Notes: generated by a model from the letters alone, not told the origin. A stretch of DNA of 64,000 nt from Burkholderiales bacterium Ga0074133 (GCA_001464865.1 LNEG01000183.1:3921-67920), one strand, 5' to 3'. Numbered from the stretch's first letter, positions 1 to 63,195 are shown. Numbers and translations: made by a program.

Positions 1-541
1 CATAGACCCGCACACTGGGGCTGTGGAAAGCATCCACCAGCGCCTGGCGCACCGTGGCGTGGGCGCTGGCAGCCACCAGCGCCGTGGGCTGGCCCAGGGC
101 CACTTCCTGCGCAAAACTGGGGCCGCTGAGCACGCCCGCCAGCAACTGCGGGGCTACGCTGGCCTGCACCTCGTGGGCAAGCAGGCCGAAAGTCTCTGGT
201 CCGTCCGCGGGCGCAGCCTCAAAGCCCTTGCACAGCCACGCGGCCGGAACGCGCACGCCCTGCAGCGCCTGCAGCATGCCGCGCAGCGCCGCCATGGGCG
301 TGGCCACGATCACCAGGTCGGCATCGGTCAGCAGTGCACCGAAAGGACCGTCGGCCACGGAAAGAGAGGCGGGAAAAGGAATGCCAGGCAGGTAGCGGGC
401 GTTGTGGCGCCCGCTTCGCATCTCGCCGGCCTGTACGGCATCGCGGGCCCAGAGGGTGACCGCATGGCCCGCGGGATGCTGGGCCGCGCTCATCGCCACG
501 GCCGAACCCCATGCACCAGCACCCAGTACTATGATTTTCAT
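1..541 (-). CDS. gpsA: NAD(P)H-dependent glycerol-3-phosphate dehydrogenase (3' end runs off the window)
   Basis: Manual translation from ATG at 541: [16 protein letters not shown]...LIVATP...WLCKGFE...[13 protein letters not shown]...RVY; follows secB as in the usual grxC-secB-gpsA order. Not in the ORF track. Confidence 0.93.
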
Positions 542-592
542 AGCTATGAGTGCTTATGAATCAAGCGCCTGGGGCCAAAACGACCCCAATCT
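528..592 (+). repeat. GCTAY-N7-RTAGC dispersed repeat, copy A (overlaps gpsA start codon)
   Basis: ACTATGATTTTCATAGC (528-544) TATGAGTGC TTATGAATCA AGCGCCTGGGGCC AAAACGACC; same layout as the other copies. Confidence 0.7.
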
Positions 593-597
593 GCCGA

Positions 598-1056
598 TCA
601 CTGCGTGATGATGGGCGAAGGCTGGCCAGCGGCCTGGGCCTGCTGCTGCTCGTACATGGCCTGGAAGTTGATCTCGGCCAGGTTCACGGGCGGAAAGCCT
701 GCGCGGTTGATGATGTCGGCCACGTTGCCACGCAGGTAGGGGTAGACGATCTGCGGGCAGGCGATGCCCATGATGGGGCCCATCTGGTCTTCGGGGATGT
801 TGCGGATCTCGAAGATGCCGGCCTGCTTGGCTTCGACCAGGAACACGGTCTTGTCCTTGATCTTGGTCTGCACGGTGGCGGTCACGGCCACTTCAAACAC
901 GCCTTCTGCGACAGGGGTGGCTTCCACGCCAAGCTGGATGTCCACGCTGGGCTGTTCCTGCTCCAGGAGGATGCCGGGGGAGTTGGGTTGCTCCAGCGAC
1001 ATGTCCTTGAGGTAGACGCGCTGGATCTGGAACACGGGATTTTCTTGGTCGGCCAT
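598..1056 (-). CDS. secB: Protein-export chaperone SecB
   Basis: [19 protein letters not shown]...[10 protein letters not shown]...[10 protein letters not shown] signature. Confidence 0.97.
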
Positions 1057-1090
1057 GGTGAAGTCTCTTTGCTTTTACGGAATTGCTGGC

Positions 1091-1127
1091 AAAACAAAAC
1101 CCGCCGCGGGAAGGTTCTCGCAGCGGG
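1091..1127 (-). terminator. Probable intrinsic terminator downstream of grxC
   Basis: On the minus strand, stem CCCGCTGCG/CGCGGCGGG followed by TTTTGTTTT. Confidence 0.55.
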
Positions 1128-1164
1128 CACATGGGGCCGCATTATGCCGCCCCGTTGAACGGTG

Positions 1165-1425: not shown

Positions 1426-1466
1426 GGCGAACTCCTGTGTATTGAAACAGTGCAGGTAAGGCCCGT

Positions 1467-11028: not shown

Positions 11029-11085
11029 ACGGGGCGGGCTTGCCCGGCGTCGTTCCGGGGTGCCTGGCGGGGTGTTGGGGGCCGA

Positions 11086-11148
11086 ATTTGAGCCAAAACG
11101 GCTCCAGGTCCAGGTATCTATTGCACCTTTTGCTATCAAAATAATAGT
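11086..11148 (-). repeat. Dispersed repeat copy B
   Basis: GCTATCAAAATAATAGT at 11132-11148, preceded by the reversed body; between convergent genes. Confidence 0.8.
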
Positions 11149-11203
11149 GGCTGAGGGGCGGTGGCATTGCCATACCGTCTGACGCCCCGTCCCTGCCTTG
11201 GCT

Positions 11204-12202: not shown

Positions 12203-13135
12203 CTACCAGGCATGCACCGCGTTGTCAGGGAAGCGGCCCTGCTTGACGGCTTGCACATACGCCTCGATGGCGCCGCGCACGCTGCCTGCGTCCTGCATGA
12301 AGTTGTGCACGAACTTCGGCATTTTTCCGAGGTTCATGCCCAGCATGTCATGCAACACCAGCACCTGGCCGGCCGTGCCGCTGCCCGCGCCGATGCCGAT
12401 GGTGTGGCAGTGCGTCAGCTCGGACGTGAGATCGGCGGCCAGCGCGGCGGGCACCATTTCCAGCACCAGCATGGCGGCACCGGCGTCCTGCAACGCGTGC
12501 GCCTCGTTGCGCAGTGTTCGTGCCGCGCTGTCGGTCTTGCCCTGCACGCGGTAGCCGCCCAGGGCGTGCACCGTCTGGGGCGTCAGGCCCAGGTGGGCGC
12601 ATACCGGTACGCCGCGCTGCACGAGGAATTCGACCGTGGGCGCCGTCCAGCCGCCGCCCTCCAGCTTGACCATGTGCGCGCCCGCCTGCATCAGGGTACA
12701 GGCGCTGCGCAGCGCCTGTTCGCGGCTCTCGGCATAGGTGCCGTAGGGCAGGTCGGCCACCAGCCAGGCAGTGCCTTGCACGCGGTGCAGGCCGCGGGCC
12801 ACGCTGGCGGTGTGGTAGGCCATGGTGTCGAGCGTCACGCCCACGGTGCTGGGCAGCCCCTGGCACACCATGCCCAGCGAGTCACCCACCAGAATGCATT
12901 CCACACCTGCCGCATCGGCCACGGCGGCAAAGGTGGCGTCATACGCCGTCAGCATGGTGATCTTGTCGCCGGCCTCGCGCATCTGCGCCAGCCGTGGCAG
13001 GCTCACGGGGCGGCGCTGCGGCAGGGGCGAGGCCGGCGGCAGCGTGCCGTAGGGGGTGCCGGCAGGCGCCGTGGCTGCAGCGGTTTCTGCCGCCGCTGCC
13101 TTCAGTCTTGCCGTGTCTGCCTGGGGTGTGTTCAT
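12203..13135 (-). CDS. panB: 3-methyl-2-oxobutanoate hydroxymethyltransferase
   Basis: [43 protein letters not shown]. Confidence 0.97.
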
Positions 13136-13251
13136 CGCTTGATCGCACTTCGCGGGAAAAAAATTGCCGCGAGTCTATGCGACGGCGGCAATGGCCGCGG
13201 CGGCCATGGGCCATGGCCTGTGGCCTGTAGGCGGGGGCGGCGTGCGGTGGG

Positions 13252-16200
13252 TCAGGTGGCGGCTTCGCCGAGGTGGGTGGGCTGCAGCACGCGCTGCAGC
13301 GGTTCGGGCCTGTGCAGGAAAAATCCCTGGACGTCGTGTATTCCGATCTCGTGCACGCGCCGCAGCACCGCTGCGTTGTGCACGAACTCGGCCACGGTGC
13401 GCAGGTTCAGCACGCGCGCCAGGTCCACGAAGCAGCGCACCGCCACGTCATCCAGCGGGTCTTCCACGAGATCGCGAATGAAGTGGCCGTCGATCTTGAG
13501 GATGTCCACGCGCAGGTTCTTGAGGTAGCTGAACGAGGACGCGCCCGCGCCGAAATCATCGAGCGCGATGCGAACCCCCAGGTGGCGCATCTGGCCGATG
13601 AAGACGGCGGCATCGGCCAGATTGGTGATGGCGGCCGTTTCCGTGATCTCCAGGCACAGGCGCTGGCAGATCTCCTGGCCTGCTGCGGTCAGAAGCTCGG
13701 CAGCCTGCCGGTGGAACGCCCTGTCGCCGATGGACTGGCCCGACAGGTTGATGCACACCATGTGGACTCCGTCCAGCGTCGGCAACGCCTTGAGCGCGTT
13801 GACCGTGTGCCGCAGCACCCAGCGGTCCATCCGCGAGGCCAGATGAAAGCGCTCGGCCGCCGGGATGAACAGGGCCGGGGAAATGATGGAACCGTCGCCG
13901 TCGAGCATGCGCAGCAGGATCTCGCAGTGCAGGCCGGCGTCGTCGGAAGCGGGCTCGCCGAGGACCATCGCGGATGCTGCATCCCCCGCCGCATGAATGC
14001 GTTGCGCGAACAGCACGAAACGGTCTTCGTCCAGCGCTTGCTCGATGCGGGTCGCCCACTGGGCATTGCCGTGGTGGGCGGTGGCGTCGGTGTCGGTGTC
14101 CACCCAGACATGCACGCGGTTGCGGCCGCCCTCCTTGGCGGCGTAGCAGGCGGCGTCTGCGGCCTGCAGGGCCGCTGCGCTGCCCGAGATATTGCCGCTG
14201 AGCGGAAGCAGTCCGATGCTCGCACCCACGCGGAAGCGGCGGTTGTCGTGCTGGTAGCGGTATTCGTCGATGCGGTCGCAGATCTTCTGCGCCACCTGCA
14301 CGGCGTTTTCGGCAGGGCAGCGCTCCAGAAGGACGGCGAACTCGTCGCCGCCCAGGCGGGCCAGCGCATCGCGCGAGCGCACGGTCTCGGTCAGCAGGCG
14401 GCTGACTTGCTGGAGCAGTTGGTCCCCGGCTGAGTGTCCGCAGGCGTCGTTGACCAGCTTGAACTGGTCCAGGTCCAGGAACAGGAGGGCGTGCTCGGCG
14501 CCATGTTCATCGGCGCTGGCCAGCAGGCGTTGCAGCCGGTGCTCAAACTCGGTGCGGTTCAGCAGCCCCGTGAGCGCATCGTGCGTGGCCCGGTAGGTCA
14601 TCTCGCCGCTCAGGCGGCGTTGCTCTGTCACGTCATGGAACACCAGCACCGCGCCGAGCACCTCGCCCGTGTCGCGGCGGATGGGAGCGGCTGAGTCTTC
14701 GATGGCCCGCTCGGACCCGTCGCGTGACACCAGCACGGTGTCCCCTGCCAGGCCGCTGGCAAGGTGGGTCTCCAGGCAGCTGAGCACGGGGTTTTCTACG
14801 GAGGTGCGCTGTTCTCCGTGCAGGATGTGAAAGACCTGGGTGATCGGCTGGCCCAGCGCTTCGGCCGTGCTCCAGCCGGTCATCCGCTCGGCCACCGGGT
14901 TCAGCCAGGTGACCACGCCCCTGGCGTCCGTGGTGATCACCGCATCGCCGATGGACTGCAGCGTGACCCGCATCAGCTCGTGCTGCTCGGTCAGCCTGGC
15001 CGTCAGGTTGTGCAGGTGCGTCACGTCCTGGAAAGCGCCCACCAGGCGCACTGCTGCACCGTGCGAGAACTCGACGCTGCCGACGGCACGCACCCAGATG
15101 CGCTCTCCGTCGGCTCGGATCAGTGGCAGCTCCAGATCCCATCCGCTGCCGCCTGCCAGCGCATGGGCCACGGCCTGCTCGATGACGGGCCGCGCTTCTG
15201 GCGCATAGAAATGGATGGCGGTTTCCAGGTCGGGCTCGTAGTCATCCGCAACGCCGTGGATCTTGCGTGTCTGGGGCGACCAGGTGAGCTTGCGCGTGGC
15301 CAGATCCAGCTCCCACCCGCCCACGCCGGCAACCGCGCCGGTGCGACTCAGCAGGTCCTGGCTGCGCTGCAGCGCCAGGGCCTGCATCTTCCGCTCGGTG
15401 ATGTCGGCCGTGACCCCGTAGAGCCATTCCGGCTTTCCGTCGGGCGTCCACGTGGTGATGCGGCCGCGCTCCTCGATCCACACGTAGTGCCCGTTCTTGT
15501 GTTGCAGGCGTATTTCGGATTCATAGCGCGGCGTGCGTCCCTCCAGGTGGTCTTTCAGGTGCTGCTGGTTGGCATCGACGTCATCAGGATGCGATATGGC
15601 ACGGCGAAACTCGCCGGTGGTGGGGGTGAGCTCGTCCAGCGTGTATCCGAGTTTTTGGGCCGATGTGACATCCACGCGCACCTCGCCTGTCTGCACATTC
15701 CACTGCCAGGTGCCGATACCGGTGCCTTCCAGAATGGAGGCCAGGCGCCAGCGCTCCTGCTGCAGCGCACGCTCGATGGCGCGCTGGTCAGTCACGTCTT
15801 CCACCGAGCCGACATAGCCCGGTGCCAGCTGCGGCCCCAGGTCTGACGTGGGACGGGCACGCGAACGCACGGCGCGCACGCTGCCATCGGGCCGCAGCAC
15901 CCTGAATTCCATGTCCAGTTCGGTGCCGCTGCGGGCAAACGCCTGCCACTGTTCGATGACCTGGGCGCGGTCGTCCGGGTGCAATGTGCTGCCCCAGCCC
16001 TGGCCCAGGCTCTCCTGCAGGGTCAGCCCGAAAATGCTTTGCCAGCGTTCGTTGGTGTAGTTGCACAGGCCGTCCAGGTCGGTGGCAAACACGCCCAGCG
16101 GGGAGACATCGCTCAGCGCCTTGTACCGCGCCTCGCTGTCGGCCAGCAGCGCCGCGGCATGGCTGGACTCGGCCCGCAGGGCCCGCTCTTCGAGCAGTGC

Positions 16201-16689: not shown

Positions 16690-16730
16690 AAGCGTTCCTG
16701 AAGTTGCCGCTGCGTTGTCGCGGACGTGGT

Positions 16731-16748
16731 TGCGGAGTTACCTCCGCA
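16731..16748. promoter_or_regulatory. Perfect inverted repeat TGCGGAG-TTAC-CTCCGCA
   Basis: 7-bp arms in the divergent GGDEF-EAL / nadC intergenic region; function unknown. Confidence 0.3.
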
Positions 16749-16967
16749 TTCTCCCCCCACCCGCCGGTCCGGCGCCACCCGGTGTGTCTTCCCCGCCGGC
16801 GGCCTGTGGAAAAAACTTGACGTATGGTTCGTCTGGCAGTAACGGGCTGGGGGAGCGGTCTTTCGGTAGCCGTTATGCTCGCCCCCCACGCGCCCGCGGC
16901 TTTCGCTGGGGGCGACGGCTTTCCCGGCCGACAATGCATCCGGAACCCAACCACTGTGCACACCCCG

Positions 16968-18943: not shown

Positions 18944-18961
18944 CGCCCTGGCGGTCTTTTT

Positions 18962-19022
18962 GCTACAAAATATATAGCTATCAGGGCAATTGATACCTGG
19001 GCCTTAGGCAGTTTTGACCGAT
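18962..19022 (+). repeat. Dispersed repeat copy C (tail overlaps the putative pabB start)
   Basis: GCTACAAAATATATAGC TATCAGGGC AATTGATACC TGGGCCTTAGGC AGTTTTGACC. Confidence 0.8.
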
Positions 19023-20867
19023 ATTTCGCTGATCGACTTCACGCAGGCGCTGAGCGGCGACGCGCAGCCTCTGCGCCACGCGTTCGGCCCGCCGCGCCAG
19101 GTGCTGGTGGCCCGCACGCTGGCGCAGGTGCGTGGTGTGCTCGACGCCGTGCACGCCGCCGCCCGGCGCGGCCACTGGTGTGTGGGCCATGTGCGTTACG
19201 AGGCGGCGCCTGCCTTCGATGCCGCCCTGCAGACCCATGCTCCGGATGGGCCGCTGGCCTGGTTTGGCGTGTACGACGCGCCCCAGCCCTGGCCCGTGTC
19301 TGCCAGCCCCGGCAGCGCGGCGCAGGTGCACTGGGCGGACAGCCTGGTGCGTGCAGACTTTGACGCCGCGCTCGCCCGCATCCAGCGGGCGATTCGCGAT
19401 GGTGATCTGTACCAGGTCAACTACACAGCGCCGCTGCATGGCGCGCTGCACGGCAGCCCGGAGGCGCTGTTCGCGGCCCTGCAGCGTGCGCAGCCCGGCG
19501 GCTATGCAGCCCACATCCATGCGGGCGACGAGCAGATCCTGTCGGTCTCGCCCGAGCTCTTCTTTGACTGGCGCGAAGTTACCGAGGAGGCCGACGGGCC
19601 GGGCGGCACCGGCGAAGGCGAGATCCTGGCCCGCCCCATGAAAGGTACCGCACCGCGCGGCGGCACCCCCGCGCAAGACCAGGCCAACGCCGAGCACCTG
19701 CGCACGGCACCCAAGGAGCGCGCCGAGAACGTGATGATCGTGGACCTGCTGAGGAACGACATCTCGCGCATTGCCACGCCCCACAGCGTGCGCGTACCCG
19801 TACTTTTCGCCACCCAGGCGCTGCCCACGGTGTGGCAGATGACGTCGGACGTGCGCGCCCGTACACGCGCCGGAACCACGCTGACCGACGTGTTTGCGGC
19901 GCTGTTCCCCTGCGGCTCGGTCACCGGCGCGCCCAAGGTGCGCGCCATGCAGATGATCCGCGCGCTGGAGCCGTCGCCCCGCGGCGTGTATTGCGGCGCG
20001 GTGGGGGTGGTGCGGCCGGCCGGTCCGCCCGGTGCCGACGGCCAGCATGCCGTGGCCGCCACGTTCAACGTGCCGATCCGTACCGTGCTGCTGCGGCGCG
20101 AGGCCACCCGCGAGGGCGCCCGTGATGGAGGAGGGCAGACCCTGCAAGCCACCTGCGGCATCGGCAGCGGCATCACGGCCGATGCGCAGCCCGATGCAGA
20201 ATGGCACGAGTGGCGCCACAAGCGCGCCTTTGTGGAGCGAGCCAGCATGCCGTTCGAAATTGTGGAAACCCTGGGCCTGCACGACGGAAAGTTCTTGCAC
20301 GCCGACCGGCACATGCGCCGCATGGGCGAGGCGGCCGCGCACTTCGGATTTGCGTGGAGCGTGCACGCAGCCCGGCAAGAGCTGCAGATCGCGTCCCTGC
20401 GTCATCTGGATGGCGACTGGCGCGTGCGCCTGCTGCTGGCGGCCGACGGCCAGTTCCACTTTGAAGTGTTTGCGCTGCAGCCCACGGCCGCGCCCGTGCG
20501 CCTGCAACTGGCCGACCGCCCCTTGGCCGAAGCCCACAGCGAGTTCGTGCGCTACAAGACCACGCGGCGCGCGCACTACGCGGCGTTTGCGCCGGTAGCC
20601 GGCTCAGGCGTGTTCGACACCGTGCTGTGGAACGAGGCAGGCGAGATCACCGAAACCACCTTTGGCAACATCGCTGCTTTGCTCGACGGCCGCTGGATCA
20701 CACCGCCGCTGGCCTGCGGCCTGCTGCCCGGCGTGGGTCGCGCCGTGGCGCTGGCCGAAGGCCGGGTGACCGAGGCCGTGCTGCATGTGGACGATGTGCC
20801 GCGCGTGGAGGCCTGGGCTTTCGTCAACAGCCTGCGCGGCTGGCTGGACGCGGCGCTGCAGCGCTGA
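19014..20867 (+). CDS. pabB: Fused aminodeoxychorismate synthase component I / ADC lyase (PabB-PabC-like)
   Basis: GDLYQVNY, SVSPELF, RPMKGT, KERAENVMIVDLLRND, FPCGSVTGAPK; C-terminal class IV aminotransferase-like domain (YKTT, ETTFGN, GLLPGV). TTG start is uncertain. Confidence 0.88.
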   Translation: MTDISLIDFTQALSGDAQPLRHAFGPPRQVLVARTLAQVRGVLDAVHAAARRGHWCVGHVRYEAAPAFDAALQTHAPDGPLAWFGVYDAPQPWPVSASPGSAAQVHWADSLVRADFDAALARIQRAIRDGDLYQVNYTAPLHGALHGSPEALFAALQRAQPGGYAAHIHAGDEQILSVSPELFFDWREVTEEADGPGGTGEGEILARPMKGTAPRGGTPAQDQANAEHLRTAPKERAENVMIVDLLRNDISRIATPHSVRVPVLFATQALPTVWQMTSDVRARTRAGTTLTDVFAALFPCGSVTGAPKVRAMQMIRALEPSPRGVYCGAVGVVRPAGPPGADGQHAVAATFNVPIRTVLLRREATREGARDGGGQTLQATCGIGSGITADAQPDAEWHEWRHKRAFVERASMPFEIVETLGLHDGKFLHADRHMRRMGEAAAHFGFAWSVHAARQELQIASLRHLDGDWRVRLLLAADGQFHFEVFALQPTAAPVRLQLADRPLAEAHSEFVRYKTTRRAHYAAFAPVAGSGVFDTVLWNEAGEITETTFGNIAALLDGRWITPPLACGLLPGVGRAVALAEGRVTEAVLHVDDVPRVEAWAFVNSLRGWLDAALQR

Positions 20868-20912
20868 ACGGGCTGGGTCTTTCCAGCAGCGTTGCACGCT
20901 GTCTGCAGCCAA

Positions 20913-20975
20913 AAAAGGGTGTTGTTGGCCGCTGGTCCCCGCTCTATTTGCCTTGAATGCTATTAAAAATATAGC
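20913..20975 (-). repeat. Dispersed repeat copy D
   Basis: GCTATTAAAAATATAGC at 20959-20975; minus strand continues ATTCAAGGC AAATAGAGCG GGGACCAGCGGCC. Confidence 0.8.
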
Positions 20976-21048
20976 AAACGGCCCGTGGTGCTTTCGGGCT
21001 GGTGTGGCACGCCCGGACCCGGACCCGTGTGCTGCACCTCTTGCGACG

Positions 21049-21408: not shown

Positions 21409-21532
21409 TTTGAAAGGTCCGGATGCGGGGTTGTCGACGGACGCCGCGCCCTGTCGGGCTGGCGCAGCGCACCGCAGCCGGGCGCGCCGCGTGCCAGTTT
21501 AGGGCAACTCGAAAAACACGTTGAACAGGTTC

Positions 21533-22207: not shown

Positions 22208-22274
22208 CCGGTTTCCTTGTTGCAAAGCGTGCTCTGCCAATGGGGTGGGGCCCGCTGTGCGCAGGCCGCAGCAA

Positions 22275-26041: not shown

Positions 26042-26049
26042 GGGTGTTT

Positions 26050-26113
26050 GCTATCTAAATGGTAGCTGCAGGTGCAATCAAAACAAGCACCTGGGGCCGG
26101 TTTGACTGCAAAA
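26050..26113 (+). repeat. Dispersed repeat copy E
   Basis: GCTATCTAAATGGTAGC TGCAGGTGC AATCAAAACA AGCACCTGGGGCC GGTTTGACTGCAAAA; perfect internal stem CAGGTGC/GCACCTG. Confidence 0.85.
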
Positions 26114-26171
26114 GCTCCCGTAGCGGGCCGCCATGGATGCATCAGTCAAATGGGGGGCTGTGCCAGCGCGT

Positions 26172-28100: not shown

Positions 28101-30200
28101 TCAGCGCACCCGCATGCCGGGCGTCGCTCCGGGCCAGGGGTTCAGCACGAAAATGCCGGGGTTGGCCTTTTCGTCGCCATGGCTCGCAGCCAGCACCATG
28201 CCTTCCGAGACGCCGAACTTCATCTTGCGTGGGGCCAGATTGGCCACCATCACCGTGTGCTTGCCCACCAGGTCTTCGGGCTTGTAGGCGCTTGCGATGC
28301 CTGAAAAGACGTTGCGCGTGCGTCCTTCGCCCACGTCCAGCGTCAGGCGCAGCAGCTTGGTGGAGCCTTCGACCGGCTCGCAGTTCACGATCAGCGCAAT
28401 GCGCAGGTCGATCTTGGTGAAGTCGTCAATGGTGATGGTGGGGGCCAGTTCCTCACCACCCGGATGGGCGTCGGCTGCTACGGTTTCAGTAGCTTCTGGC
28501 GCTTGTGCTGCCTGGGCTGGGGCCTCAAACAGTGCTTCGAGCTGCTCGGGCGTCACGCGCTGCATCAGGTGCTGGTAGGGCGCAATGGCCTGCACGTCGC
28601 CGGCCACGTCCCAGCGCTGCATGTCCACGCCCACAAAGCCTTGCACGGCCCGGGCCAGGCCCGGCAGCACGGGCGACAGGTAGCGCGTGAGCGCCGCAAA
28701 GGTGTTGATCAGCACCGAGCAGACCTGGTGCAGGGCCTCGTTGTTGTCAGGGTTCTTGGCCAGGTCCCAGGGCTTGTTCTGGTCCACATAGGCGTTGACC
28801 TTGTCGGCCAGAAGCATGATCTCGCGCGTGGCCTTGCTGTACTCGCGCGTCTCGTACATCTGCGTGATGGCGCTGCTGGCGCCGCGCACTTCAGCCAGCA
28901 GGGCCGCGCCCGTGGTGCCGAAGTCGCTGGTCAGCTTGCCGTCAAACCGCTTGGTCAAAAAGCCCGCTGCACGGCTGGCAATGTTCACGTACTTGCCGAT
29001 CAGGTCGCTGTTCACGCGCAGCATGAAGTCTTCGGCGTTGAAGTCGATGTCTTCATTGCGGGCGCTCAGCTTGGCGGCCAGGTAGTAGCGCAGCCACTCG
29101 GCGTTCATACCGAGGCTCAGGTACTTGAGCGGGTCCAGGCCCGTGCCGCGGCTCTTGCTCATCTTCTCGCCGTTGTTCACGGTCAAAAAGCCGTGCACGA
29201 ACACGTTGTTGGGCGTCTTGCGGCCGGAAAAATGCAGCATCGCCGGCCAGAAGAGCGTGTGGAAGGTGACGATGTCCTTGCCGATGAAGTGGTACTGCTC
29301 CAGGGCCGGGTCGGCCATGTAGGCGTCGTAGCTTTCGCCGCGCTTTTCCAGCAGGTTTTTCAGCGATGCGAGGTAGCCCACGGGCGCATCGAGCCACACA
29401 TAGAAATACTTGCCTGGCGCGTCCGGAATCTCGATGCCGAAGTAGGGCGCGTCGCGGCTGATGTCCCAGTCGCCCAGGCCTTCGCTTTGTGTGCCGTCGG
29501 GGTTGGTGCGAACCGTGAACCATTCCTTGATCTTGTTGGCCACCTCCGGCTGCAGCTTGCCGTCCTGCGTCCAGTTCTCCAGGAATTCCACGCAACGCGG
29601 GTCGGAAAGCTTGAAGAAGAAGTGCTCGGAGTGCTTGAGCTCCGGCTTGGCGCCCGACAGGGCCGAGAACGGGTTGATCAGGTCGGTGGGCGCATACACC
29701 GAGCCGCACACCTCGCAGTTGTCGCCATATTGGTCCTTGGCGTGGCACTTGGGGCATTCGCCCTTGATGTAGCGGTCGGGCAGGAACATGTTCTTCTCGG
29801 GGTCGAAGAACTGCTCGATGGTGCGCACTTCAATCAGCGAGCCGTCGGCACGGTCACGCAGGTCGCGGTAGATCTGGCGGGCCAGCTCGTGATTCTCTGG
29901 CGCGTCGGTGCTGTGCCAGTTGTCAAAGCTGATGTGAAAGCCGTCCAGGTACTGCTTGCGGCCCGCCGCAATGTCGGCCACGAACTGCTGGGGCGTCTTG
30001 CCGGCCTTTTCGGCGGCAATCATGATGGGCGCGCCGTGGGTGTCGTCGGCGCCCACAAAGTTGACGGCGTTGCCCTGCATCCGCTGGTACCGCACCCAGA
30101 TGTCGGCCTGGATGTATTCCATGATGTGGCCGATGTGGAAGTTGCCGTTGGCGTACGGCAGGGCGGTGGTCACGAAGAGTTTGCGGGCGGATGACGTCAT
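28101..30200 (-). CDS. metG: Methionine--tRNA ligase
   Basis: [13 protein letters not shown], Zn knuckle (CPKC..CEVC), KMSKS, C-terminal tRNA-binding domain. Confidence 0.98.
28477..28524 (+). repeat. Dispersed repeat copy F, inside the metG linker
   Basis: GCTACGGTTTCAGTAGC TTCTGGCGC TTGTGCTGCC TGGGCTGGGGCC; encodes [16 protein letters not shown] on the minus strand. Confidence 0.65.
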
Positions 30201-35704: not shown

Positions 35705-37603
35705 ATGCACCTCGCCCCCGAAGCCCCCACCGTAGCCGCCGTGTCAGTCGCCGACATGCGCGAGCGCATCCGCCGCAAAAGCCACCTCAAGGGCCGCCAG
35801 CCCGACCACGCCGCCATGGCCGAGGTGGCGCCGCTGCTGGGCCCGCGCCCGGCGGGGGGCTACCGGCGCGACCTGCTCATTGAATACCTGCACCGCCTGA
35901 ACGACCACTTTGGTGTGCTGCACGACCGGCACCTGGTGGCACTGGCCAGGCAGATGAACCTGCCGATGGCCGAGGTGTATGAGGTGGCCAGCTTTTATCA
36001 CCACTTTGAAGTCGTGCGCGGCGAGGATGCCGTGGCCCCGCGCCTGGTGCTGCGGGTGTGCGACAGCCTGAGTTGCAGCATGGCCGGCGCACGCGAATTG
36101 CTTGAAGCACTGCCGGCACGGTTGAAAGCCGCCGGGCAGGGCGATGTGCAGGTGCAGGCCGTGCCCTGCGTGGGCCGGTGCGAACAGGCCCCCGTGGCGG
36201 TGGTGCACCAGTGCCCGGTGCCGCACGCCACGGTGGCCAGGGTGCTGGAAACGGTCGATTTGATGCCAGATCGGGCGCAAGCCGTTCACGCACCATCCCT
36301 GGCAGCTATCAATTTTGATGTGGCTGCGCTGGCTGGGCACAGTGTTCCGGCGCAGCCGGAAGGCATCACTCCCGCCCACACCGACCTGGCCACTTACCGT
36401 GCACACGGCGGCTACCAGACGGCTGCCGCCCTGGTCAACGGTGAGATGGATGCCGAGGCGGTGCTCGCGGCCATGGAAGACTCCGGCCTGCGTGGCCTGG
36501 GCGGGGCGGGCTTTCCGGCCGGGCGCAAATGGCGCATCGTGCGCGAGCAGCCTGCCCCACGGCTGATGGCCATCAACATCGACGAAGGCGAGCCTGGCAC
36601 CTTCAAGGACCGCACGTACCTCGAACGCGATCCGCACCGCTTTCTGGAAGGCGTGCTCGTCGCCGCCCAGGTGGTGGGCACCGAGGCCATCTATATCTAC
36701 CTGCGCGACGAATACCATGGCTGCCGCGCGCTGCTGCAGCGCGCCCTGGACGACCTGCGCGCCCAGCCACCCTGCCCACTGCCGCACATCGAACTGCGGC
36801 GCGGTGCGGGCGCCTACATCTGCGGCGAAGAGTCGGCCATGATCGAGAGCATCGAAGGCAAGCGTGGCGAGCCCCGCATGCGCCCGCCCTACATCGCCCA
36901 AGTGGGGCTGTTTGGCCGCCCCACGCTGGAGCACAACTTCGAGACGCTGTACTGGGTGCGCGACATCGTCGAGCGCGGGCCGGCGTGGTTTGCCGGCTTT
37001 GGCCGCCACGGTCGCAAAGGCCTGCGCAGTTTCAGTGTGAGCGGCCGGGTGAAGCACCCGGGCGTCAAGCTCGCGCCTGCAGGCATCACGGTGCAGGAAC
37101 TCATCGACGAATACTGCGGCGGCATGCAGGACGGCCACGAGCTGTATGCGTATCTGCCGGGCGGCGCTTCGGGTGGCATCCTGCCCGCCCGCCTGAACGA
37201 CATTCCGCTGGAATTCGACACCCTGCAGCCCTACGGCTGCTTCATCGGATCGGCTGCCGTCATCGTGCTCAGCCAGCACGACCGGGCGCGCGACGCGGCG
37301 CTGAACGTGATGCGCTTTTTTGAGCACGAAAGCTGCGGCCAATGCACCCCCTGCCGTGTGGGCACGGCCAAGGCGGCCACGCTGATGGAGGCACCGCAGT
37401 GGGATGAGGAGCTGCTCGACGACCTGGCGCAGGTGATGGCCGATGCGTCCATCTGCGGCCTGGGCCAGGCAGCGCCCAACCCCATCCGCTGCATCCACAA
37501 ATACTTTGCGCACGAAGTGGGTGAGGGGCCCTGGCCGGGCGACCTGCCCAGGCCCCGCAACAGCCCGCTGGCAGAGCAGCTGCCGATGGGAGGCCAGCCA
37601 TGA
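35705..37603 (+). CDS. NAD-dependent formate dehydrogenase beta subunit (fused NuoE-like + NuoF-like)
   Basis: VCDSLSC..CVGRC (2Fe-2S), SGLRGLGGAGFP, NIDEGEPGTFKDR, GAGAYICGEES, ESCGQCTPC..SICGLG. Confidence 0.9.
   Translation: MHLAPEAPTVAAVSVADMRERIRRKSHLKGRQPDHAAMAEVAPLLGPRPAGGYRRDLLIEYLHRLNDHFGVLHDRHLVALARQMNLPMAEVYEVASFYHHFEVVRGEDAVAPRLVLRVCDSLSCSMAGARELLEALPARLKAAGQGDVQVQAVPCVGRCEQAPVAVVHQCPVPHATVARVLETVDLMPDRAQAVHAPSLAAINFDVAALAGHSVPAQPEGITPAHTDLATYRAHGGYQTAAALVNGEMDAEAVLAAMEDSGLRGLGGAGFPAGRKWRIVREQPAPRLMAINIDEGEPGTFKDRTYLERDPHRFLEGVLVAAQVVGTEAIYIYLRDEYHGCRALLQRALDDLRAQPPCPLPHIELRRGAGAYICGEESAMIESIEGKRGEPRMRPPYIAQVGLFGRPTLEHNFETLYWVRDIVERGPAWFAGFGRHGRKGLRSFSVSGRVKHPGVKLAPAGITVQELIDEYCGGMQDGHELYAYLPGGASGGILPARLNDIPLEFDTLQPYGCFIGSAAVIVLSQHDRARDAALNVMRFFEHESCGQCTPCRVGTAKAATLMEAPQWDEELLDDLAQVMADASICGLGQAAPNPIRCIHKYFAHEVGEGPWPGDLPRPRNSPLAEQLPMGGQP
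36259..36321 (-). repeat. Dispersed repeat copy G, in the NuoE/NuoF linker
   Basis: Minus strand ACATCAAAATTGATAGC TGCCAGGGA TGGTGCGTGA ACGGCTTGCGCCC GATCTGGCATCAAA; tail matches copy L. Confidence 0.7.
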
Positions 37604-40524
37604 GCGCGGTCCCCATCCCGCAAGGCGTGGCCTTTGAGCTGGACGGCCAGTCCGTCACTGCCCACCCCGGCGAAACCATCCTGAAGGCCGCGCAGCGCCA
37701 CGGCGTGGACATCCCGCATCTTTGCTACGCCGACGGGCTGCGCCCCGATGGCAACTGCCGCGCCTGCGTGGTCGAGATCGCCGGTGAACGCACCCTGGCG
37801 CCCAGTTGCTGCCGCGCGCCGACGGAAGGCATGAAGGTGCAGGCGGCCAGCCCGCGCGCCCGCAAGAGCCAGCAAATGGTGGTGGAGATGCTGCTGTCGG
37901 ACATGCCCGATGTGGGCTACCGGTGGAATGACGGCGTTGCGAATGCTCCTGATTTGATAGCTAAAAGGCATGATAACGAAAGGGCCTGTGGCCGATTTGA
38001 CCTGAAAACCGCCGAAAAGGCCGGTCAGCACGGCGAACTGAGCGCCTGGGCGGACCGCCTGGGCGTGGCGGTGCGCCCGGCGCTCCAGGCCCTGCGCCGC
38101 GCCCAACCCGCGCCCGACCTCAGCCACCCCGCGATGGCCGTCAACCTGGACGCCTGCATCCAGTGCAACCGCTGCGTGCGCGCCTGCCGCGAAGAACAGG
38201 TCAACGACGTCATCGGCTACGCGCTGCGAGGGGCAGACAGCAAGATCGTCTTCGACCTCGACGACCCCATGGCCGAGAGCACCTGCGTGGCCTGTGGCGA
38301 ATGTGTGCAGGCCTGCCCCACGGGCGCGCTCAGCCCCAAGACGCACATCGGCTCCCAAAAGGTGGACCGCAAGGTCGATTCGGTCTGCCCGTTCTGCGGC
38401 GTGGGCTGCCTCATCACCTACAACGTGCGCGATGAAAAAATCATCAGCGTGGAAGGCCGCGACGGCCCGGCCAACCACGGCCGCCTGTGTGTGAAGGGGC
38501 GCTTTGGGTTTGACTACGCCCACCACCCCGACCGCCTCACGGTGCCGCTGATCCGCAAGCCCGGCGTGCCCAAAGAGGTGCGGCCCTACGGTGCCGACTG
38601 GCGCGATACCTTCCGCGAAGCGACCTGGGACGAGGCGCTAGACATGGCCGCAGGCCAGCTCAAGAGCCTGCGCGACACGCACGGCCCCAAGGCGCTGGCG
38701 GGCTTTGGCTCGGCCAAGGGCAGCAATGAAGAGGCCTACCTGTTCCAGAAACTGGTGCGCACCGGCTTTGGCAGCAACAACGTGGACCACTGCACGCGGC
38801 TGTGCCACGCGTCCAGCGTGGCGGCGCTGCTCGAAGGCGTGGGCTCGGGCGCGGTGAGCAACCCGGTGAACGACGTGGAGCACGCCGAGCTGATCTTCGT
38901 GATCGGCTCCAACCCCACCGCCAACCATCCCGTGGCGGCCACCTGGATGAAGAACGCCGCCAAGCGCGGCGCGAAGATCGTGCTGGCCGACCCGCGCGTG
39001 ACCGACATTGGCCGCCACGCCTGGCGCACGCTGCAGTTCAAGGCCGATGCCGATGTGGCTATGCTCAATGCGCTCATCCACACGGTGATCGACGAGGGGC
39101 TGGTGGATGAGGCCTTCATCCAGGATCGCGCCAACAACTTCGAGGCCCTCAAGGCCAACGTGATGGGCTGCAGCCCCGAAGCCATGGCCCCCGTGTGCGG
39201 CATCCCGGCCGAGACGCTGCGTGAGGTGGCGCGGGCGTTTGCCACATCGAAGTCCTCCATGATTCTCTGGGGCATGGGCGTGAGCCAGCACATCCACGGC
39301 ACCGACAACGCACGCTGTCTGATCGCGCTGTGCGCCATCACCGGCCAGATCGGCAAGCCCGGCTCGGGCCTGCACCCGCTGCGCGGCCAGAACAACGTGC
39401 AGGGCGCGAGCGATGCGGGCCTGATCCCCATGATGTTCCCCAACTACCAGCGCGTGGACAACGCCGGGGCGCATGCCTGGTTTGAAGACTTCTGGGGCAC
39501 CAAGCTGGACGAAGCGCCGGGCTACACCGTGGTCGAAATCATGCATAAGGCCCTGGCACCCGACAGCGACCCGCACAAGGTGCGCGGCATGTACATCATG
39601 GGCGAGAACCCGGCCATGAGCGACCCCGACCTGAACCACGCGCGCCACGCGCTGGCCAGCCTGCAACACCTGGTGGTGCAAGACATCTTTCTGACCGAAA
39701 CGGCCTGGCTGGCCGATGTGGTGTTGCCCGCCAGCGCCTGGCCCGAAAAGACCGGTACGGCCAGCAATACCGACCGCATGGTGCAGATGGGCCGCCGCGT
39801 GCTCAATCCGCCGGGCGATGCGCAGCCGGACCTGTGGATCATCCAGCAGATCGCCGCGCGCATGGGGCTTGGCTGGAACTACGAAGGCGAAGAGTCCGGC
39901 GTGGCCGCTGTCTACGACGAAATGCGCCAGGCCATGCACACGAGCATCGAGGGCATCACCTGGGAGCGCCTCGCGCGCGACTCCAGCGTGACCTACCCCT
40001 GCCTTACCGAAGACGACCCGGGCCAGCCCATCGTCTTCACCGAAAAATTCCCCACGCCCACGGGCCGCCTGCAACTGGTGCCAGCCAGCGTGATCCCGGC
40101 GGCGGAAAAGCCCGATGCCGACTACCCCCTGGTGCTCATCACCGGCCGCCAGCTGGAGCACTGGCACACCGGCAGCATGACGCGGCGCAGCACGGTGCTG
40201 GACGCCATCGAGCCCATGGCCACGGCCTCGCTTCACGGGGACGAGCTGGCGCGGCTGGGTGTGCAGCCGGGCGCCCTGGTGGGCATCCGGTCGCGCCGGG
40301 GCATGGTGAAGGTGCGCGTGCGGCTTGATGACGGCACGCCGCGCGGCACGGTGTTCATGCCCTTTGCGTATGTGGAGGCGGCGGCCAACCTGCTGACCAA
40401 CGCGGCGCTGGATCCGTTCGGCAAGATCCCGGAGTTCAAGTACTGCGCGGTGGCTGTGGAAGCGCTGCACGATGGGGCGCCAGCGGCTTCGGCGGGCGAC
40501 TTGCAACGCCTGACGCAGCCCTGA
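37600..40524 (+). CDS. fdhF: NAD-dependent formate dehydrogenase alpha subunit (FdhF-like, Mo/W-bisPGD)
   Basis: 2Fe-2S, two ferredoxin motifs, CPFCGVGC..LCVKG, VDHCTRLCHASS (Cys ligand), PLRGQNNVQG; no Tat signal. Confidence 0.93.
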   Translation: MSAVPIPQGVAFELDGQSVTAHPGETILKAAQRHGVDIPHLCYADGLRPDGNCRACVVEIAGERTLAPSCCRAPTEGMKVQAASPRARKSQQMVVEMLLSDMPDVGYRWNDGVANAPDLIAKRHDNERACGRFDLKTAEKAGQHGELSAWADRLGVAVRPALQALRRAQPAPDLSHPAMAVNLDACIQCNRCVRACREEQVNDVIGYALRGADSKIVFDLDDPMAESTCVACGECVQACPTGALSPKTHIGSQKVDRKVDSVCPFCGVGCLITYNVRDEKIISVEGRDGPANHGRLCVKGRFGFDYAHHPDRLTVPLIRKPGVPKEVRPYGADWRDTFREATWDEALDMAAGQLKSLRDTHGPKALAGFGSAKGSNEEAYLFQKLVRTGFGSNNVDHCTRLCHASSVAALLEGVGSGAVSNPVNDVEHAELIFVIGSNPTANHPVAATWMKNAAKRGAKIVLADPRVTDIGRHAWRTLQFKADADVAMLNALIHTVIDEGLVDEAFIQDRANNFEALKANVMGCSPEAMAPVCGIPAETLREVARAFATSKSSMILWGMGVSQHIHGTDNARCLIALCAITGQIGKPGSGLHPLRGQNNVQGASDAGLIPMMFPNYQRVDNAGAHAWFEDFWGTKLDEAPGYTVVEIMHKALAPDSDPHKVRGMYIMGENPAMSDPDLNHARHALASLQHLVVQDIFLTETAWLADVVLPASAWPEKTGTASNTDRMVQMGRRVLNPPGDAQPDLWIIQQIAARMGLGWNYEGEESGVAAVYDEMRQAMHTSIEGITWERLARDSSVTYPCLTEDDPGQPIVFTEKFPTPTGRLQLVPASVIPAAEKPDADYPLVLITGRQLEHWHTGSMTRRSTVLDAIEPMATASLHGDELARLGVQPGALVGIRSRRGMVKVRVRLDDGTPRGTVFMPFAYVEAAANLLTNAALDPFGKIPEFKYCAVAVEALHDGAPAASAGDLQRLTQP
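37945..38009 (+). repeat. Dispersed repeat copy H, inside the FDH alpha subunit
   Basis: GCTCCTGATTTGATAGC TAAAAGGC ATGATAACGA AAGGGCCTGTGGCC GATTTGACCTGAAAA; encodes APDLIAKRHDNERACGRFDLK. Confidence 0.8.
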
Positions 40525-56892: not shown

Positions 56893-56920
56893 CCGCTCGT
56901 CCATCAATCAAGCGCTGATT

Positions 56921-56984
56921 GCTATCGAATAAATAGCAATCAGGGCAATCAACGCCTTGGCTACACGCCGAAAAGGCTTGAAAA
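56921..56984 (+). repeat. Dispersed repeat copy J
   Basis: GCTATCGAATAAATAGC AATCAGGGC AATCAACGCC TTGGCTACACGCC GAAAAGGCTTGAAAA. Confidence 0.8.
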
Positions 56985-58518: not shown

Positions 58519-58674
58519 GCGACCGCGGGCGTGGTGAACCCGCGCAAGGCATCCGGGCGCCGGCAGATGGCAGGTGACCGGCCGCAGACGGCAGTCCGCG
58601 AGGTGAAGAGGGCCGGTGCGAGACCTGAAGCCATGGCCGTGCCCTGCCGCGCGCGCCTGGTTCAGCACTTTTTT

Positions 58675-58735
58675 GCTATCGATAAAATAGCACCCAAGGC
58701 ATTTGAATAAAAGGCTACAGCCGGATTCCGCCTGG
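58675..58735 (+). repeat. Dispersed repeat copy K
   Basis: GCTATCGATAAAATAGC ACCCAAGGC ATTTGAATAA AAGGCTACAGCC. Confidence 0.78.
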
Positions 58736-59412: not shown

Positions 59413-59462
59413 GAAGCCGTCGGTTGTACCCGAATACCGCGCACTGCCGTGTCTGCCGGCAC

Positions 59463-60680
59463 TTAACGCTCTGGCGGCGTGGGGATGTACTCGGCCGCGA
59501 TGAACTGCGTGGACTGCGCCGGGTTGAAGTTGTCGTCGCTCACCAACACCAGGCTGCGGCCGCCCCCCGGCAGCGGCGGGCCCCAAGTCATGCCCTCCAG
59601 GTTGTCCACCGGTGCAATGCCCAGCGCGGCAAAGTCAGCCACGAGCGTCTTGGGCACCGGCACATGGTTGCCCGGCACCAGCTGCGCGCGCGCCAGGGTG
59701 TTGGTGCCTGCGCGCGTGTCGATGCGGTACAGCCGCACTGCAAAACCCGCGCCTGCGCTGTAGCTGCGCTCCAGCACCAGCAGGTGGTGCTTGCCATCGG
59801 CCAGCACCTCGCTGATGCCCACGGTCTCGGGGCCGACGGGCAGTGGCCGAGGGTGCTGCACCGCGTCGGGCTGGTAGGCGATCTGGCGCAGGGGGCGGCC
59901 GCTGGCGAGGTCCACCAGGGTCAGGCGGACCGGGCCGCCCGGTGCCGCGTGGGTGGGCAGCGGGCCGTCCTGCACCCAGGGCAGTTCCATGGCCAGCCAG
60001 GCCTTGCGCACCCCGGGCAGCAGGGCCAGGCCCTCCAGCGTGCCGTTGTTGCGCGGGCCGCTGCGCCGGTCGGCCGCGGGCTCGAAGCTGGCGGGCAGCG
60101 GGATGTCGCGCACGGCCGCGCCGTCGGCGGCGCTCACGCGCAGCCTGGGGCCGAAGCCGCGTGCAAAGTCGCCTTCGCTGGTCCACACGAACTGCTTCGC
60201 ACCGGGCAGCCAGCGCACGGCTTCGGCATCCGGGACGTCGATGTGACCGGCGGCGCGGCGCGAGGGCGCGTACGGCACGCCCGCGGCATGCAGCAGGGTG
60301 CGCACCTGGAGCCACTGCGGCGGCTGCAGGGCCTGCGCGTCCAGCGCGATGCGGGCGGTGTACACCCGGGCCGGTGCGCGCGACGAGCGGTCGTCGCTGA
60401 TCAGCAGGTACTGGTCGCTGGCGGCGTCGTAGTCAATGCCCGAGAGCCCGCCCAGCGGGGTGCCCAGCACCTCGATGCCGCTGGGCACGTCCACGGTGCC
60501 GATGATGCGCAGCGCGGGGCCTTTGGCGGGGCCGTGCGCCGGGCCGTCAGCAGCAGCGATGGCCGTCGGCGCACCTGCGGTGGTCACCACGGGCTGCGAG
60601 CGGATTCCGCAGCCGGCGGCCATCATCACGGCCAGCACGGTGCCCAGCGCCATCCGGGCCGTCATCCAGGCGGGTTTCAC
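59463..60680 (-). CDS. Esterase-like activity of phytase family lipoprotein
   Basis: Lipobox AAGC; [49 protein letters not shown]. Confidence 0.88.
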
Positions 60681-61390
60681 AGCAGTCCCTTTTCCGCCAT
60701 CGACAGCGCCTGGCCTGGCGCCACGATGACGTGATCGAGCACGCGCACGTCGACCAGCGCCAGCGTGGTCTTCAGCGTCTGGGTCAGTGCTTCGTCGGCC
60801 CGGCTGGGCTGCACGCTGCCGCTGGGGTGGTTGTGCGCCAGGATGACGGCGGCGGCCTGGTGGTGCAGCGCACGCAGCACCACCTCGCGCGGGTACACGC
60901 TGGTCTGGGTGAGGGTGCCGCGAAAGAGTTCTTCCATCGCGACCAGCCGGTTCTGGCTGTCCAGGAAGAGCACGGCAAACACCTCGTGCCCCTTGGCCGC
61001 CAGGTGCAGCTGCAGGTAGTGCTTGACGGTGTCGGCCGAGTCAAAGACCTCGCGCTCGCGCAGCTGCTGGGACAGGGCGCGGCGGGCCAGCTCGAGCACG
61101 GCCACCAGTTCGGCGCGCTTGGCGGGGCCCAGGCCCTTGATGCGTGCCAGGTCGGCGGTGGTCGCGTGCAGCAGACCGGCAATGCCGCCAAAGCCCCCAC
61201 CAGGCTTGCCGGTGGCCGGGTCTGTGGCGGGTGGGTCGAGCAGTTCCTGGGCCATCTGCAGCACGCCCTTGCCCACGATGCCGGTGCGCAGCAGGATGGC
61301 CAGCAGCTCGGCATCGGCCAGTGCGCCGGGGCCGCGCGCCAGCAGTTTCTCGCGCGGCTGGGCGTCCGCGGGCAGGTCTTTGAGGGCCAT
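60677..61390 (-). CDS. radC: RadC/JAB (UPF0758) protein
   Basis: [15 protein letters not shown], HhH (IKGLGPAK), YPREV, AHNHPSG..PSRAD, LDHVIV. Confidence 0.95.
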
Positions 61391-61489
61391 GGATGGGGTG
61401 GATGCGTAAGGCGCGGGCCGCGCCTGGCTGCGCTGTCGGGAGGGCTTTGCCCGGTTTTCTACAATGCAGGCCAGTTTATCGGTACTTTC

Positions 61490-61954
61490 ATGACCTCCAT
61501 CGCACCCACGCTCCCCACCGTTCAGCCCGGTTCCTTCCTCACCTTGCACTACCGCCTGGCCGGTCCGTCGGGGGACGTGATCAACACCTTTACCGACAAG
61601 CCCGCCACCCTGTCGCTGGGCACCGGCGAGCTCTCGCCCGCGGTAGAGCAGCGCCTGCTGGGCCTGGCCGAAGGCACGCGCGCCACGTTCGAGCTGCCCG
61701 CCGGCGAGGCCTTTGGCGAGCGCAATGCCGACATGCAGCAGTGGGTGGCGAGGAAGCTGCTCAACCAGCTGGGCGATCCGGATGAAAAGTACAGCGTGGG
61801 CGATGTGGTGCAGTTCCCCACACCCGACGGCCTGGGTAGCTACGCCGGAGCCGTGCAGCAGGTGCGGGACGATGGCGCGGTGCTGTTTGACTTCAATCAC
61901 CCGCTGGCAGGCCAGCCGGTCACGTTCGAAGTGCAAGTGATCGGCATCCTGTGA
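61490..61954 (+). CDS. fkpB: FKBP-type peptidyl-prolyl isomerase (SlpA/FkpB)
   Basis: [26 protein letters not shown]; stop overlaps the ispH start. Confidence 0.9.
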
Positions 61955-62949
61955 TGAACGCCCCGCAGGAAATCCTTCTGGCCGAGCCCCGCGGCTTCTG
62001 TGCTGGCGTCGACCGCGCCATTGAAATCGTTGAGCGCGCGCTGCAAAAGTTTGGTGCGCCCATCTACGTGCGCCACGAAATCGTGCACAACACCTACGTG
62101 GTCAACGACCTCAAGGCCAAGGGCGCGATCTTCATCGAGGAGCTGGCCGATGTGCCGCCGGGCGCCACGCTGGTCTTCAGCGCCCACGGTGTGAGCCGCG
62201 CCGTGCAGGAAGAGGCCGTGGCCCGGGGCTTCAGCATTTTTGACGCCACTTGCCCGCTGGTGACCAAGGTGCACGTCGAGGTGGCCAAGCTCGCCAAAGA
62301 GGGCTACGAATTCATCATGATCGGCCACAAGGGCCACCCCGAGGTCGAGGGCACCATGGGCCAGCTCGACCACGGCATCCACCTGGTGGAAGACGTGGCC
62401 GATGTCGCGCGCGTGCAGCCGGTGCAGACCGAGAAGCTGGCGGTGGTCACGCAGACGACCCTGAGCGTGGACGATGCCGCCGAGATATCGGCCGCCGTGC
62501 GCGCCCGTTTCCCGCAGGTGCGCGAGCCCAAGCAGCAGGACATCTGCTACGCCACCCAGAACCGGCAGGATGCCGTCAAGGTGCTGAGCCCGCAGGTGGA
62601 CGTGGTGATCGTGGTGGGCAGCCCCACCAGCTCCAACAGCAACCGCCTGCGCGAGCTGGCCGCGCGCCTGGGCACGAAGGCCTACATGGTCGACAGCGCC
62701 GAAGAGCTGCGCACAGAGTGGTTTGACGGCGCCGCGCGCGTGGGCCTGACGGCCGGCGCATCGGCCCCCGAAATCCTGGTGCAGCAAGTCATCGAGCGCA
62801 TCAAGGCACTGGGGGCGGTGTCGGTGCGCACCATGGCGGGCATCGAGGAAACCATCAAGTTCCCGCTGCCCAAGGGCCTGAAGATCGACGCCGCCACGGG
62901 GCTGGAGATCAGCCAGCGCATGCCCGAGACGGGGCCTGGGGCGCACTGA
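61954..62949 (+). CDS. ispH: 4-hydroxy-3-methylbut-2-enyl diphosphate reductase
   Basis: [52 protein letters not shown]. Confidence 0.97.
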
Positions 62950-63134
62950 CCCACATCTGCACCCACCCCCCCACACTGCGCCAGACCGCGCCAAAAACCG
63001 TTCGGACTGAGCCTGTCGCAGCGCCGCGCGGCGGGTCGGCATCGTCCCGCGTGCACGGTTGTTGATGGTCTGCGCGGTGGGGTGGCGTCAGTGCCGGCGG
63101 CGCACAGCCTTGGTTGGGCTGTGCGGCGTTGGTT

Positions 63135-63195
63135 GCTATTAAATAAATAGCAATAGGTGCAAATAAATAAAGGACTTGTGGCCGATCTGGCATGT
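63135..63195 (+). repeat. Dispersed repeat copy L
   Basis: GCTATTAAATAAATAGC AATAGGTGC AAATAAATAA AGGACTTGTGGCC GATCTGGCATG. Confidence 0.82.

Follow-up and report, generated by a model that had tools for sequence, protein, structure and literature searches.

A roughly 68-bp palindromic repeat dispersed through Comamonadaceae genomes is conserved as DNA and may be a protein recognition site

Short dispersed repeats, among them the repetitive extragenic palindromes (REPs), are common, and the purpose for which their hosts keep them is usually unclear. Classical REPs are GC-rich palindromes of 20–40 bp that carry a GTAG or CGTC tetranucleotide at one palindrome end (PMC3733652). Here we analyze a dispersed repeat present in 11 copies in a 64,000-nucleotide stretch of Burkholderiales bacterium Ga0074133 (contig C183:3921-67920 of an Acidovorax metagenome-assembled genome, G000, of 4.34 Mb, 255 contigs and 65% GC), the whole of which we refer to below as the window. 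On balance, we lean toward the view that this element is an ancient, vertically inherited composite repeat of the Comamonadaceae, maintained at the DNA level and likely to be a protein recognition site. Because the element is AT-rich in a very GC-rich genome, neutral copies should fade fast; that they have faded in two related lineages and stayed nearly unchanged in most therefore provides an unusually clean test of upkeep. The pattern points to a putative sequence-specific reader whose sites would number in the hundreds, in a bacterial family that is both large and of environmental importance. It also matters for annotation, as copies add about 21 residues to proteins and supply the start or first codons of some genes.

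Several described systems resemble this element in part. Like REPs, the mosaics that they form (bacterial interspersed mosaic elements, BIMEs) and the hairpin-forming REP doublets (REPINs) with their REP-associated tyrosine transposases (RAYTs), it comprises hundreds of short palindromic intergenic copies near gene 3′ ends, a hairpin beside a short conserved tag, no target-site duplication, and long vertical inheritance; as in REPIN-RAYT systems, a single-copy Y1 (RAYT-like) gene is adjoined by a copy. The copy number and extragenic position match those of classical REPs, but the dominant conserved part of the element is an AT-rich dyad rather than a GC hairpin (its own hairpin is GC-rich yet degenerate in this genome), its tag is ATAGC in place of GTAG or CGTC (only 12% of copies have a G ahead of TAGC), and about 12% of copies are translated within genes. 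Its units are single and evenly spaced, unlike clustered BIMEs or the inverted pairs of REPINs, and genomes that have lost the element still have the RAYT-like gene. Miniature transposable elements with inverted repeats (MITEs) differ in another way, since the element's two ends, aaTTGCTAT.. and ..CAAAAt, do not repeat one another in inverted form, and it is accompanied by no target-site duplication. The Rickettsia palindromic elements share with it the in-frame position within housekeeping genes, the encoding of peptides in tolerated linkers, and the retention of orthologous sites, but their sequence and host are unrelated, and in the present case most copies are intergenic and it is the DNA, including synonymous positions, that is conserved. 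The uptake signal sequences (USSs) of Pasteurellaceae and the DNA uptake sequences (DUSs) of Neisseriaceae combine an invariant core with an AT-rich context, occur in both orientations at even spacing, and use preferred frames in genes. Our element is like them in each of these respects and in being a family-wide signal with local variants; it differs in being tenfold sparser, in forming a discrete 68-bp unit, and in its origin by insertion.

An earlier note on this stretch, made from the sequence alone, had been unable to match the repeat to a named family, and indeed no Rfam family fits: there were no matches at the gathering score over the whole window, and none for three copies at E<=1. 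The searchable literature on REPs and RAYTs holds no description of it for Acidovorax, Polaromonas or Rhodoferax, nor were its sequence strings found there, with the exception of a 2017 survey (PMC5217627). That survey reports two unexplained motif pairs: for Polaromonas naphthalenivorans CJ2 it gives ATAGCT(N)22CAAAAG, with 125 copies, 81% of them intergenic and 34 between convergent genes, and for Acidovorax ebreus TPSY it gives GCTTAT(N)5AAGCG. These motifs are pieces of the element, the ATAGCT pair corresponding to a dyad arm plus the tail and the GCTTAT pair to the hairpin. The survey describes pentamer pairs only and assigns no function; the unit, its spread across the family, its intragenic copies and the selection acting on it are not described there.

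One repeat family with a near-invariant dyad arm

Copies were detected with an nhmmer profile hidden Markov model (HMM) that was seeded with nine window copies and iterated across the whole genome to convergence; a second, broad-family profile was built from 145 copies from about 50 related genomes. Within the window, the strict palindrome GCTAY-N7-RTAGC occurs 7 times, against 0.03 occurrences expected from dinucleotide-preserving shuffles. The profile finds 416 copies genome-wide (207 on the + strand and 209 on the − strand) and none in the base-reversed genome. The earlier note had counted 11 copies in the window, anticipated hundreds per genome, and staked its claim on enrichment over shuffled sequence; both the enrichment and the copy number bear it out. 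Ten of the 11 noted sites are picked up by the genome's own profile, and the eleventh (at 28477, in metG) is a GC-richer copy seen only with the broad-family profile (E=3e-4). All 11 sites are members of one roughly 68-bp repeat family. The overall layout described in the note agrees with the profile anatomy, and we likewise count 8 copies on the plus strand and 3 on the minus strand, with four in convergent gaps according to independent, crude gene calls. Three of the 11 (in metG, fdsB and fdsA) lie inside coding genes.

The unit of about 68 bp has sharp edges: information jumps between aaTT and GCTAT, drops past ..CAAAAt, and is flat outside. Its parts follow in the order of an AT-rich dyad (TTGCTAT-N7-ATAGCAA), a variable GC hairpin, GGCC, and a TTTGAC..AAAA tail. 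The most constrained portion is the A/T run plus the TTGATAGCT half of the dyad. Over the 416 copies the right dyad arm is near-invariant (A 0.87, T 0.94, and A, G and C each 1.00), such that AGC (A16, G17, C18) is present in every one of them, whereas the left arm is weaker (0.67–0.94); the 7-bp center is A/T-rich and lacks self-complementarity. The Watson-Crick fraction of the two arms equals the independent expectation, and at the inner pair the C-A and T-G combinations occur while the compensated C-G hardly ever does. Taken together with the invariant AGC, the Watson-Crick fraction implies that the dyad is kept as sequence and not through compensation.

A second stem had also been proposed in the earlier note, and copy E does contain a perfect 7-bp one (CAGGTGC/GCACCTG). 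This is not a general feature of the copies in this genome: across all 416, the Watson-Crick fraction equals the independent expectation in every candidate register, and in tests of column covariation and mutual information only neighboring columns correlate. Given this lack of column covariation in either stem in this genome, we dropped the structured-RNA reading. At the level of folding energy, own halves pair slightly better than swapped halves (−5.5 vs −4.8 kcal/mol, a gain of 0.65 kcal/mol). A 9-bp GC stem is clear in the broad-family consensus, GCTATTAATTTGATAGCTGCTAGCGCTT..AAGCGCTAGAGGCC; own halves there fold at −10.0 kcal/mol and swapped halves at −8.7 kcal/mol, and even so the pairing is mostly conserved sequence. 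The stem contains more G:T than A:C pairs, and folding is better for the + strand.

Orthologous loci identify the source genome as that of an Acidovorax. We assessed the distribution among relatives by counts of the strict palindrome. In Acidovorax, 20 of 24 sampled genomes hold 190–344 palindromes, and one genome that is 74% complete holds 145; the element-poor Acidovorax genomes retain 19–49. The distribution over the family as defined in GTDB is bimodal, with 50–730 copies in about 60 of 166 genera and fewer than about 20 in the rest, and the palindrome is not enriched in other families of the order. A "GAGC dialect" was considered as the reason for the element-poor genomes and rejected, because the GAGC form is not enriched there. 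A search for a mis-spaced pattern in G253, the closest genome compared (about 90% DNA identity), returned only background.

Stasis, selection on DNA, and decay in place

The element is now static. All 10 profile-detected window copies have an orthologous copy in G253, and evidence of what holds copies in place comes from two of them within the fds operon, where the repeat is translated. Copy G (36257..36323, − strand; HMM match 36257-36316, 26 bits) lies in frame and antisense in fdsB, in the linker that joins the NuoE-like and NuoF-like domains, and copy H (37944..38009, + strand; HMM match 37944-38009, 45.6 bits) lies in frame and sense in fdsA, in the linker after the 2Fe-2S domain. These two linkers exceed those of the solved Methylobacterium (M. 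extorquens) FoDH1 subunits by 29 and 35 residues, respectively. At the fdsA site, 32 Acidovorax orthologs contain the element, while those of the element-poor genomes G252, G271 and G240 are 21 codons shorter; as the difference between filled and empty sites is 63 nt, the element arose there by insertion. No target-site duplication beyond chance was detected at k=2–6 and several offsets around 212 full-length copies, a check that the earlier note had proposed. The element once spread as a discrete unit of about 63–66 bp, which entered in both orientations and left its target unduplicated.

Within the 32 fdsA orthologs, the codons of the element are kept with high fidelity (CCT 0.88, GAA 0.94, TTG 0.88, ATA 0.97, GCT 1.00), and the GC content at third codon positions (GC3) is 0–0.1, in comparison with about 0.9 in the flanks. 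The antisense copy in fdsB shows the same behavior among 29 Acidovorax orthologs (GCT 29/29, ATC 28/29, AAT 28/29, TTT 29/29, GAT 27/29), with GC3 near 0 except for ATC. The kept codons are rare in this genome, and flanking synonymous sites in the same alignments vary freely. That rare A/T-ending codons are held in both orientations, with the sense and antisense copies of the operon equally conserved, while the flanks vary, demonstrates selection on the DNA itself. In some fds orthologs, including that of this genome, the hairpin portion has decayed and the dyad half and tail remain.

Element-poor genomes reveal the fate of copies once this constraint is gone. The site of copy E (26048..26113, + strand, between two minus-strand genes; HMM match 26048-26113, 50 bits) still holds a copy in the element-poor G009, G252 and G271; in G002 and G240 the site is alignable and of the same length, with a GC content of 0.66–0.68 vs 0.37–0.48 in carriers. 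Orthologs of copy A (526..592, + strand, intergenic; HMM match 529-590, 43 bits) are present in G253, G016 and G014 and decayed in place in G002, G240 and G009; in G002 and G240 the length is kept and the GC content is 0.71–0.79, compared with 0.49–0.59 in carriers. Unchanged length with raised GC means that copies were lost via in-place AT-to-GC drift and not by excision, and drift to genomic GC in place is what relaxed constraint predicts. The element is therefore held by purifying selection on its DNA sequence, and once the constraint is lost, copies melt into the genomic GC where they stand.

Genomic placement and competing explanations

Copies are unevenly distributed among types of intergenic gap. 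Convergent gaps hold 104 copies (21% of such gaps are occupied), tandem gaps 190 (9%), and divergent gaps 29 (6%); that is, copies favor convergent gaps, shun divergent gaps, and mostly sit just past gene ends. In tandem gaps, 98 copies have one orientation and 92 the other, an absence of bias that sets the element apart from intrinsic terminators, whose GC hairpin and adjoining U run share the orientation of the upstream gene. A further 52 copies (12.5%) fall within open reading frames (ORFs) in which the sequence to either side has coding potential in a shared frame, and one frame per orientation dominates among them (26/32 sense, 17/20 antisense). Orientation is independent of GC skew and of gene-strand majority (odds ratios about 1), and there is no replication-strand bias. 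Compared with a type-matched random choice of gaps and genes, neighboring copies are also evenly spaced: the median gap is 6.5 kb vs 4.8 kb by chance, the coefficient of variation is 0.74 vs 0.99, 6 gaps are shorter than 1 kb where 27 are expected, and only 2 of 401 occupied gaps or genes contain two copies together. Copies are not concentrated at contig ends, which means that breaks in the assembly are not the source of this regularity; we take the spacing as no more than suggestive.

These properties are consistent with an element that acts as double-stranded DNA, since copies divide 207/209 between strands and 98/92 within tandem gaps, and sense and antisense fds copies are conserved alike. 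Under this reading the dyad would be the recognition site of a lineage-specific trans-acting protein, presumably bound as a dimer, with a role like that of REPs or BIMEs, and the trans-acting factor would have been lost or altered in the element-poor lineages. Among the identities that the earlier note had put forward, a site for a nucleoid protein fits the DNA-level conservation best, the protein itself being putative. Its suggestion of a REP/MITE-like repeat holds with regard to lineage specificity and a copy number in the hundreds (416) but fails with regard to both a MITE, for want of terminal inverted repeats and target duplication, and a tagged REP. The third suggestion, a structured RNA module, finds no support, as orientation is independent of transcription, columns do not covary in this genome, and Rfam offers no match. 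We also consider, more tentatively, that the element is an evenly spaced genome-wide signal with a putative reader specific to part of the Comamonadaceae, which could be a nucleoid-organizing, chromosome-maintenance, or DNA-uptake recognition system. Loss of the reader in some Acidovorax lineages (G002, G240) would release hundreds of sites to decay, and as sites have decayed in the presumed reader-less lineages, the reader should be findable by comparing the gene content of rich and decayed genomes.

Some considerations weigh against a maintained recognition site. The recognizing protein and its binding are a postulate drawn from sequence. Conserved intragenic copies have a degenerate left dyad arm, so that symmetry of a dimer site is not a requirement; partial conservation also extends to the hairpin and tail, for which a simple operator model does not account. 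The codon test covers two genes in related, non-independent genomes, and placement was scored with our own home-made gene caller based on ORFs and codon usage. Finally, a preference for operon ends could by itself yield the even spacing.

A first alternative, which we regard as unlikely, is a REPIN/REP-type element spread, and perhaps maintained, by a single-copy RAYT-like transposase of the Y1 (HUH) type that works on hairpins of single-stranded DNA, with the invariant TAGC just 5′ of the hairpin standing in for the GTAG tag. The genome does hold one Y1_Tnp gene, outside the window (43 bits in Pfam; 75.8 bits against the NCBIfam model REP_Tyr_transpos, the cut-off being 80), and a degenerate element copy adjoins its 3′ end. 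Of 20 element-rich genera, about 19 have a copy at this place, always in one orientation, whereas most element-poor genera have none. A tag plus hairpin, the absence of target duplication, and a vertically inherited single-copy gene would all fit the REPIN-RAYT pattern (PMC3116915, PMC5581495). The excess of G:T over A:C in the stem and the better folding of the + strand would also favor this alternative. The earlier note had proposed looking for a RAYT gene flanked by copies, and the result is mixed, in that only one flank has a copy and the gap in question doubles as the upstream region of gltB. Moreover, the gene is found in 192 of 201 family genomes, including genomes without the element, and is intact in the element-poor Acidovorax genomes G002 (80% identity), G240, G009, G252 and G271; being nearly universal, it does not track the element. 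Nor do we see replication-strand bias, a GTAG or CGTC tag, inverted pairs (copies are single, with more than one in only 2 units), or any turnover at 10% divergence.

The remaining explanations each account for part of the pattern. An uptake-signal-like sequence, whose short core, set in AT-rich flanks, the DNA-uptake machinery would favor and the resulting recombination drive would preserve, as for USS and DUS, would explain an invariant short core within a weaker extended consensus, the lack of orientation bias, the enrichment in convergent gaps, the single tolerated frame per orientation in genes, orthologous conservation, even spacing, and lineage restriction. We consider it very unlikely, as the density of about 1 per 10 kb is about tenfold below that of USS or DUS, and the element is a sharp-ended unit that entered fdsA as a 63-nt insertion instead of by point mutation. 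Competence genes were examined as a correlate and rejected: ComEC is present in all five genomes tested, rich and poor alike, and TfoX_N is missing only in G002. We know of no evidence for sequence-biased uptake in this bacterial family. A module working at the RNA level, as a terminator, 3′-end stabilizer or small RNA, seems highly improbable to us; the preference for gene 3′ ends, the hairpin in many copies and the better folding of own than swapped halves would suit it, but the element has no preferred orientation relative to transcription, and conservation is highest not in the stem but in the unpaired AT-rich half of the dyad, which stays together with the tail in some orthologs whose stem has decayed. 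The stable hairpins in the flanks follow the 3′ ends of adjacent genes, to which they belong, and not the element. We give almost no credence to a dead selfish relic, that is, neutral leftovers of an extinct MITE-like burst. Such a relic would be expected from the absence of a transposase and of recent gain or loss and from the high divergence among copies, but comparing codons and decay already refutes it in our view: in 29–32 species the rare codons ending in A or T and the AT-rich core persist in the face of strong GC pressure, in G002 and G240 these sites drift to genomic GC, and AGC is invariant in all copies.

Individual copies and their surroundings

Two intergenic copies contribute to translation starts. 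The dyad of copy A covers the start and first codons (MKIIV..) of a minus-strand gene ending at 541 (window 526-545). The stretch with the ATG and first codons is kept in element-poor genomes, although the remaining element decays there. Copy C (18960..19026, + strand; HMM match 18960-19020, 48.9 bits) lies between nadA and a pabB-like gene, both named by Pfam assignment, and within its tail, TTTGAC, the TTG (19014-19016) offers the pabB-like ORF its earliest possible start codon. The site is also filled at orthologous loci of Acidovorax, Simplicispira, Polaromonas and Comamonas granuli, and the spacer beside it is not conserved across those genera.

Copies B (11084..11150, − strand; HMM match 11084-11147, 49.6 bits), D (20911..20977, − strand; HMM match 20925-20977, 38 bits), J (58673..58733, + strand; HMM match 58673-58733, 34 bits) and K (63133..63194, + strand; HMM match 63133-63194, 46.7 bits) all lie between convergent genes, and copy I (56919..56984, + strand; HMM match 56919-56984, 42 bits) lies between tandem plus-strand genes; each of the five has an ortholog in G253. 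In the gap of copy D, some other genomes hold a copy in the reversed orientation. Copy F (28477..28527, + strand), found only with the broad-family HMM (16.9 bits), lies antisense inside metG, and a look-alike is present in locus L010.

A second segment, CTGnAGGCC-like or a GC hairpin, often follows about 28 nt past GGCC (e.g., window 26114-26140 and 38010-38040); in the 3′ flanks of full-length copies genome-wide it gives weak peaks, at positions 68-70 and 77-80 of the profile. Because this segment tracks neighboring gene 3′ ends, it probably represents the terminators of those genes rather than a longer variant of the element.

Past its 2Fe-2S domain, the fdsA product (window 37600-38100) has no His-Cys motif for the extra 4Fe-4S cluster of the NuoG type. 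The solved alpha subunit of Methylobacterium FoDH1 aligns likewise (..LLvaDqPe..) and is missing the same motif, so its absence is a trait of this formate dehydrogenase type and was not caused by insertion of the repeat.

The gap between the RAYT-like gene and gltB (C46:26234-26415; locus L081:2160-2340) contains two conserved motifs, AATTGGGGTCAGATTCCAATTA and TTAGGGACACATCAA, which are common to element-rich and element-poor genera and found nowhere else in this genome. Being unique, they were rejected as a repeat family; they are probably regulatory sites of gltB.

Apart from a few blocks, the window and G253 are collinear over 64 kb at 86–94% identity. A block of about 3.9 kb at 13058-16965, with a minus-strand ORF of 1146 aa (13252-16689), has no counterpart in G253, whose syntenic region holds only about 215 bp at this point, and is a lineage-specific gain or loss. 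Conversely, G253 has about 4 kb of extra DNA beside 21408-22274, and about 1.2 kb beside copy K (62957-63219).

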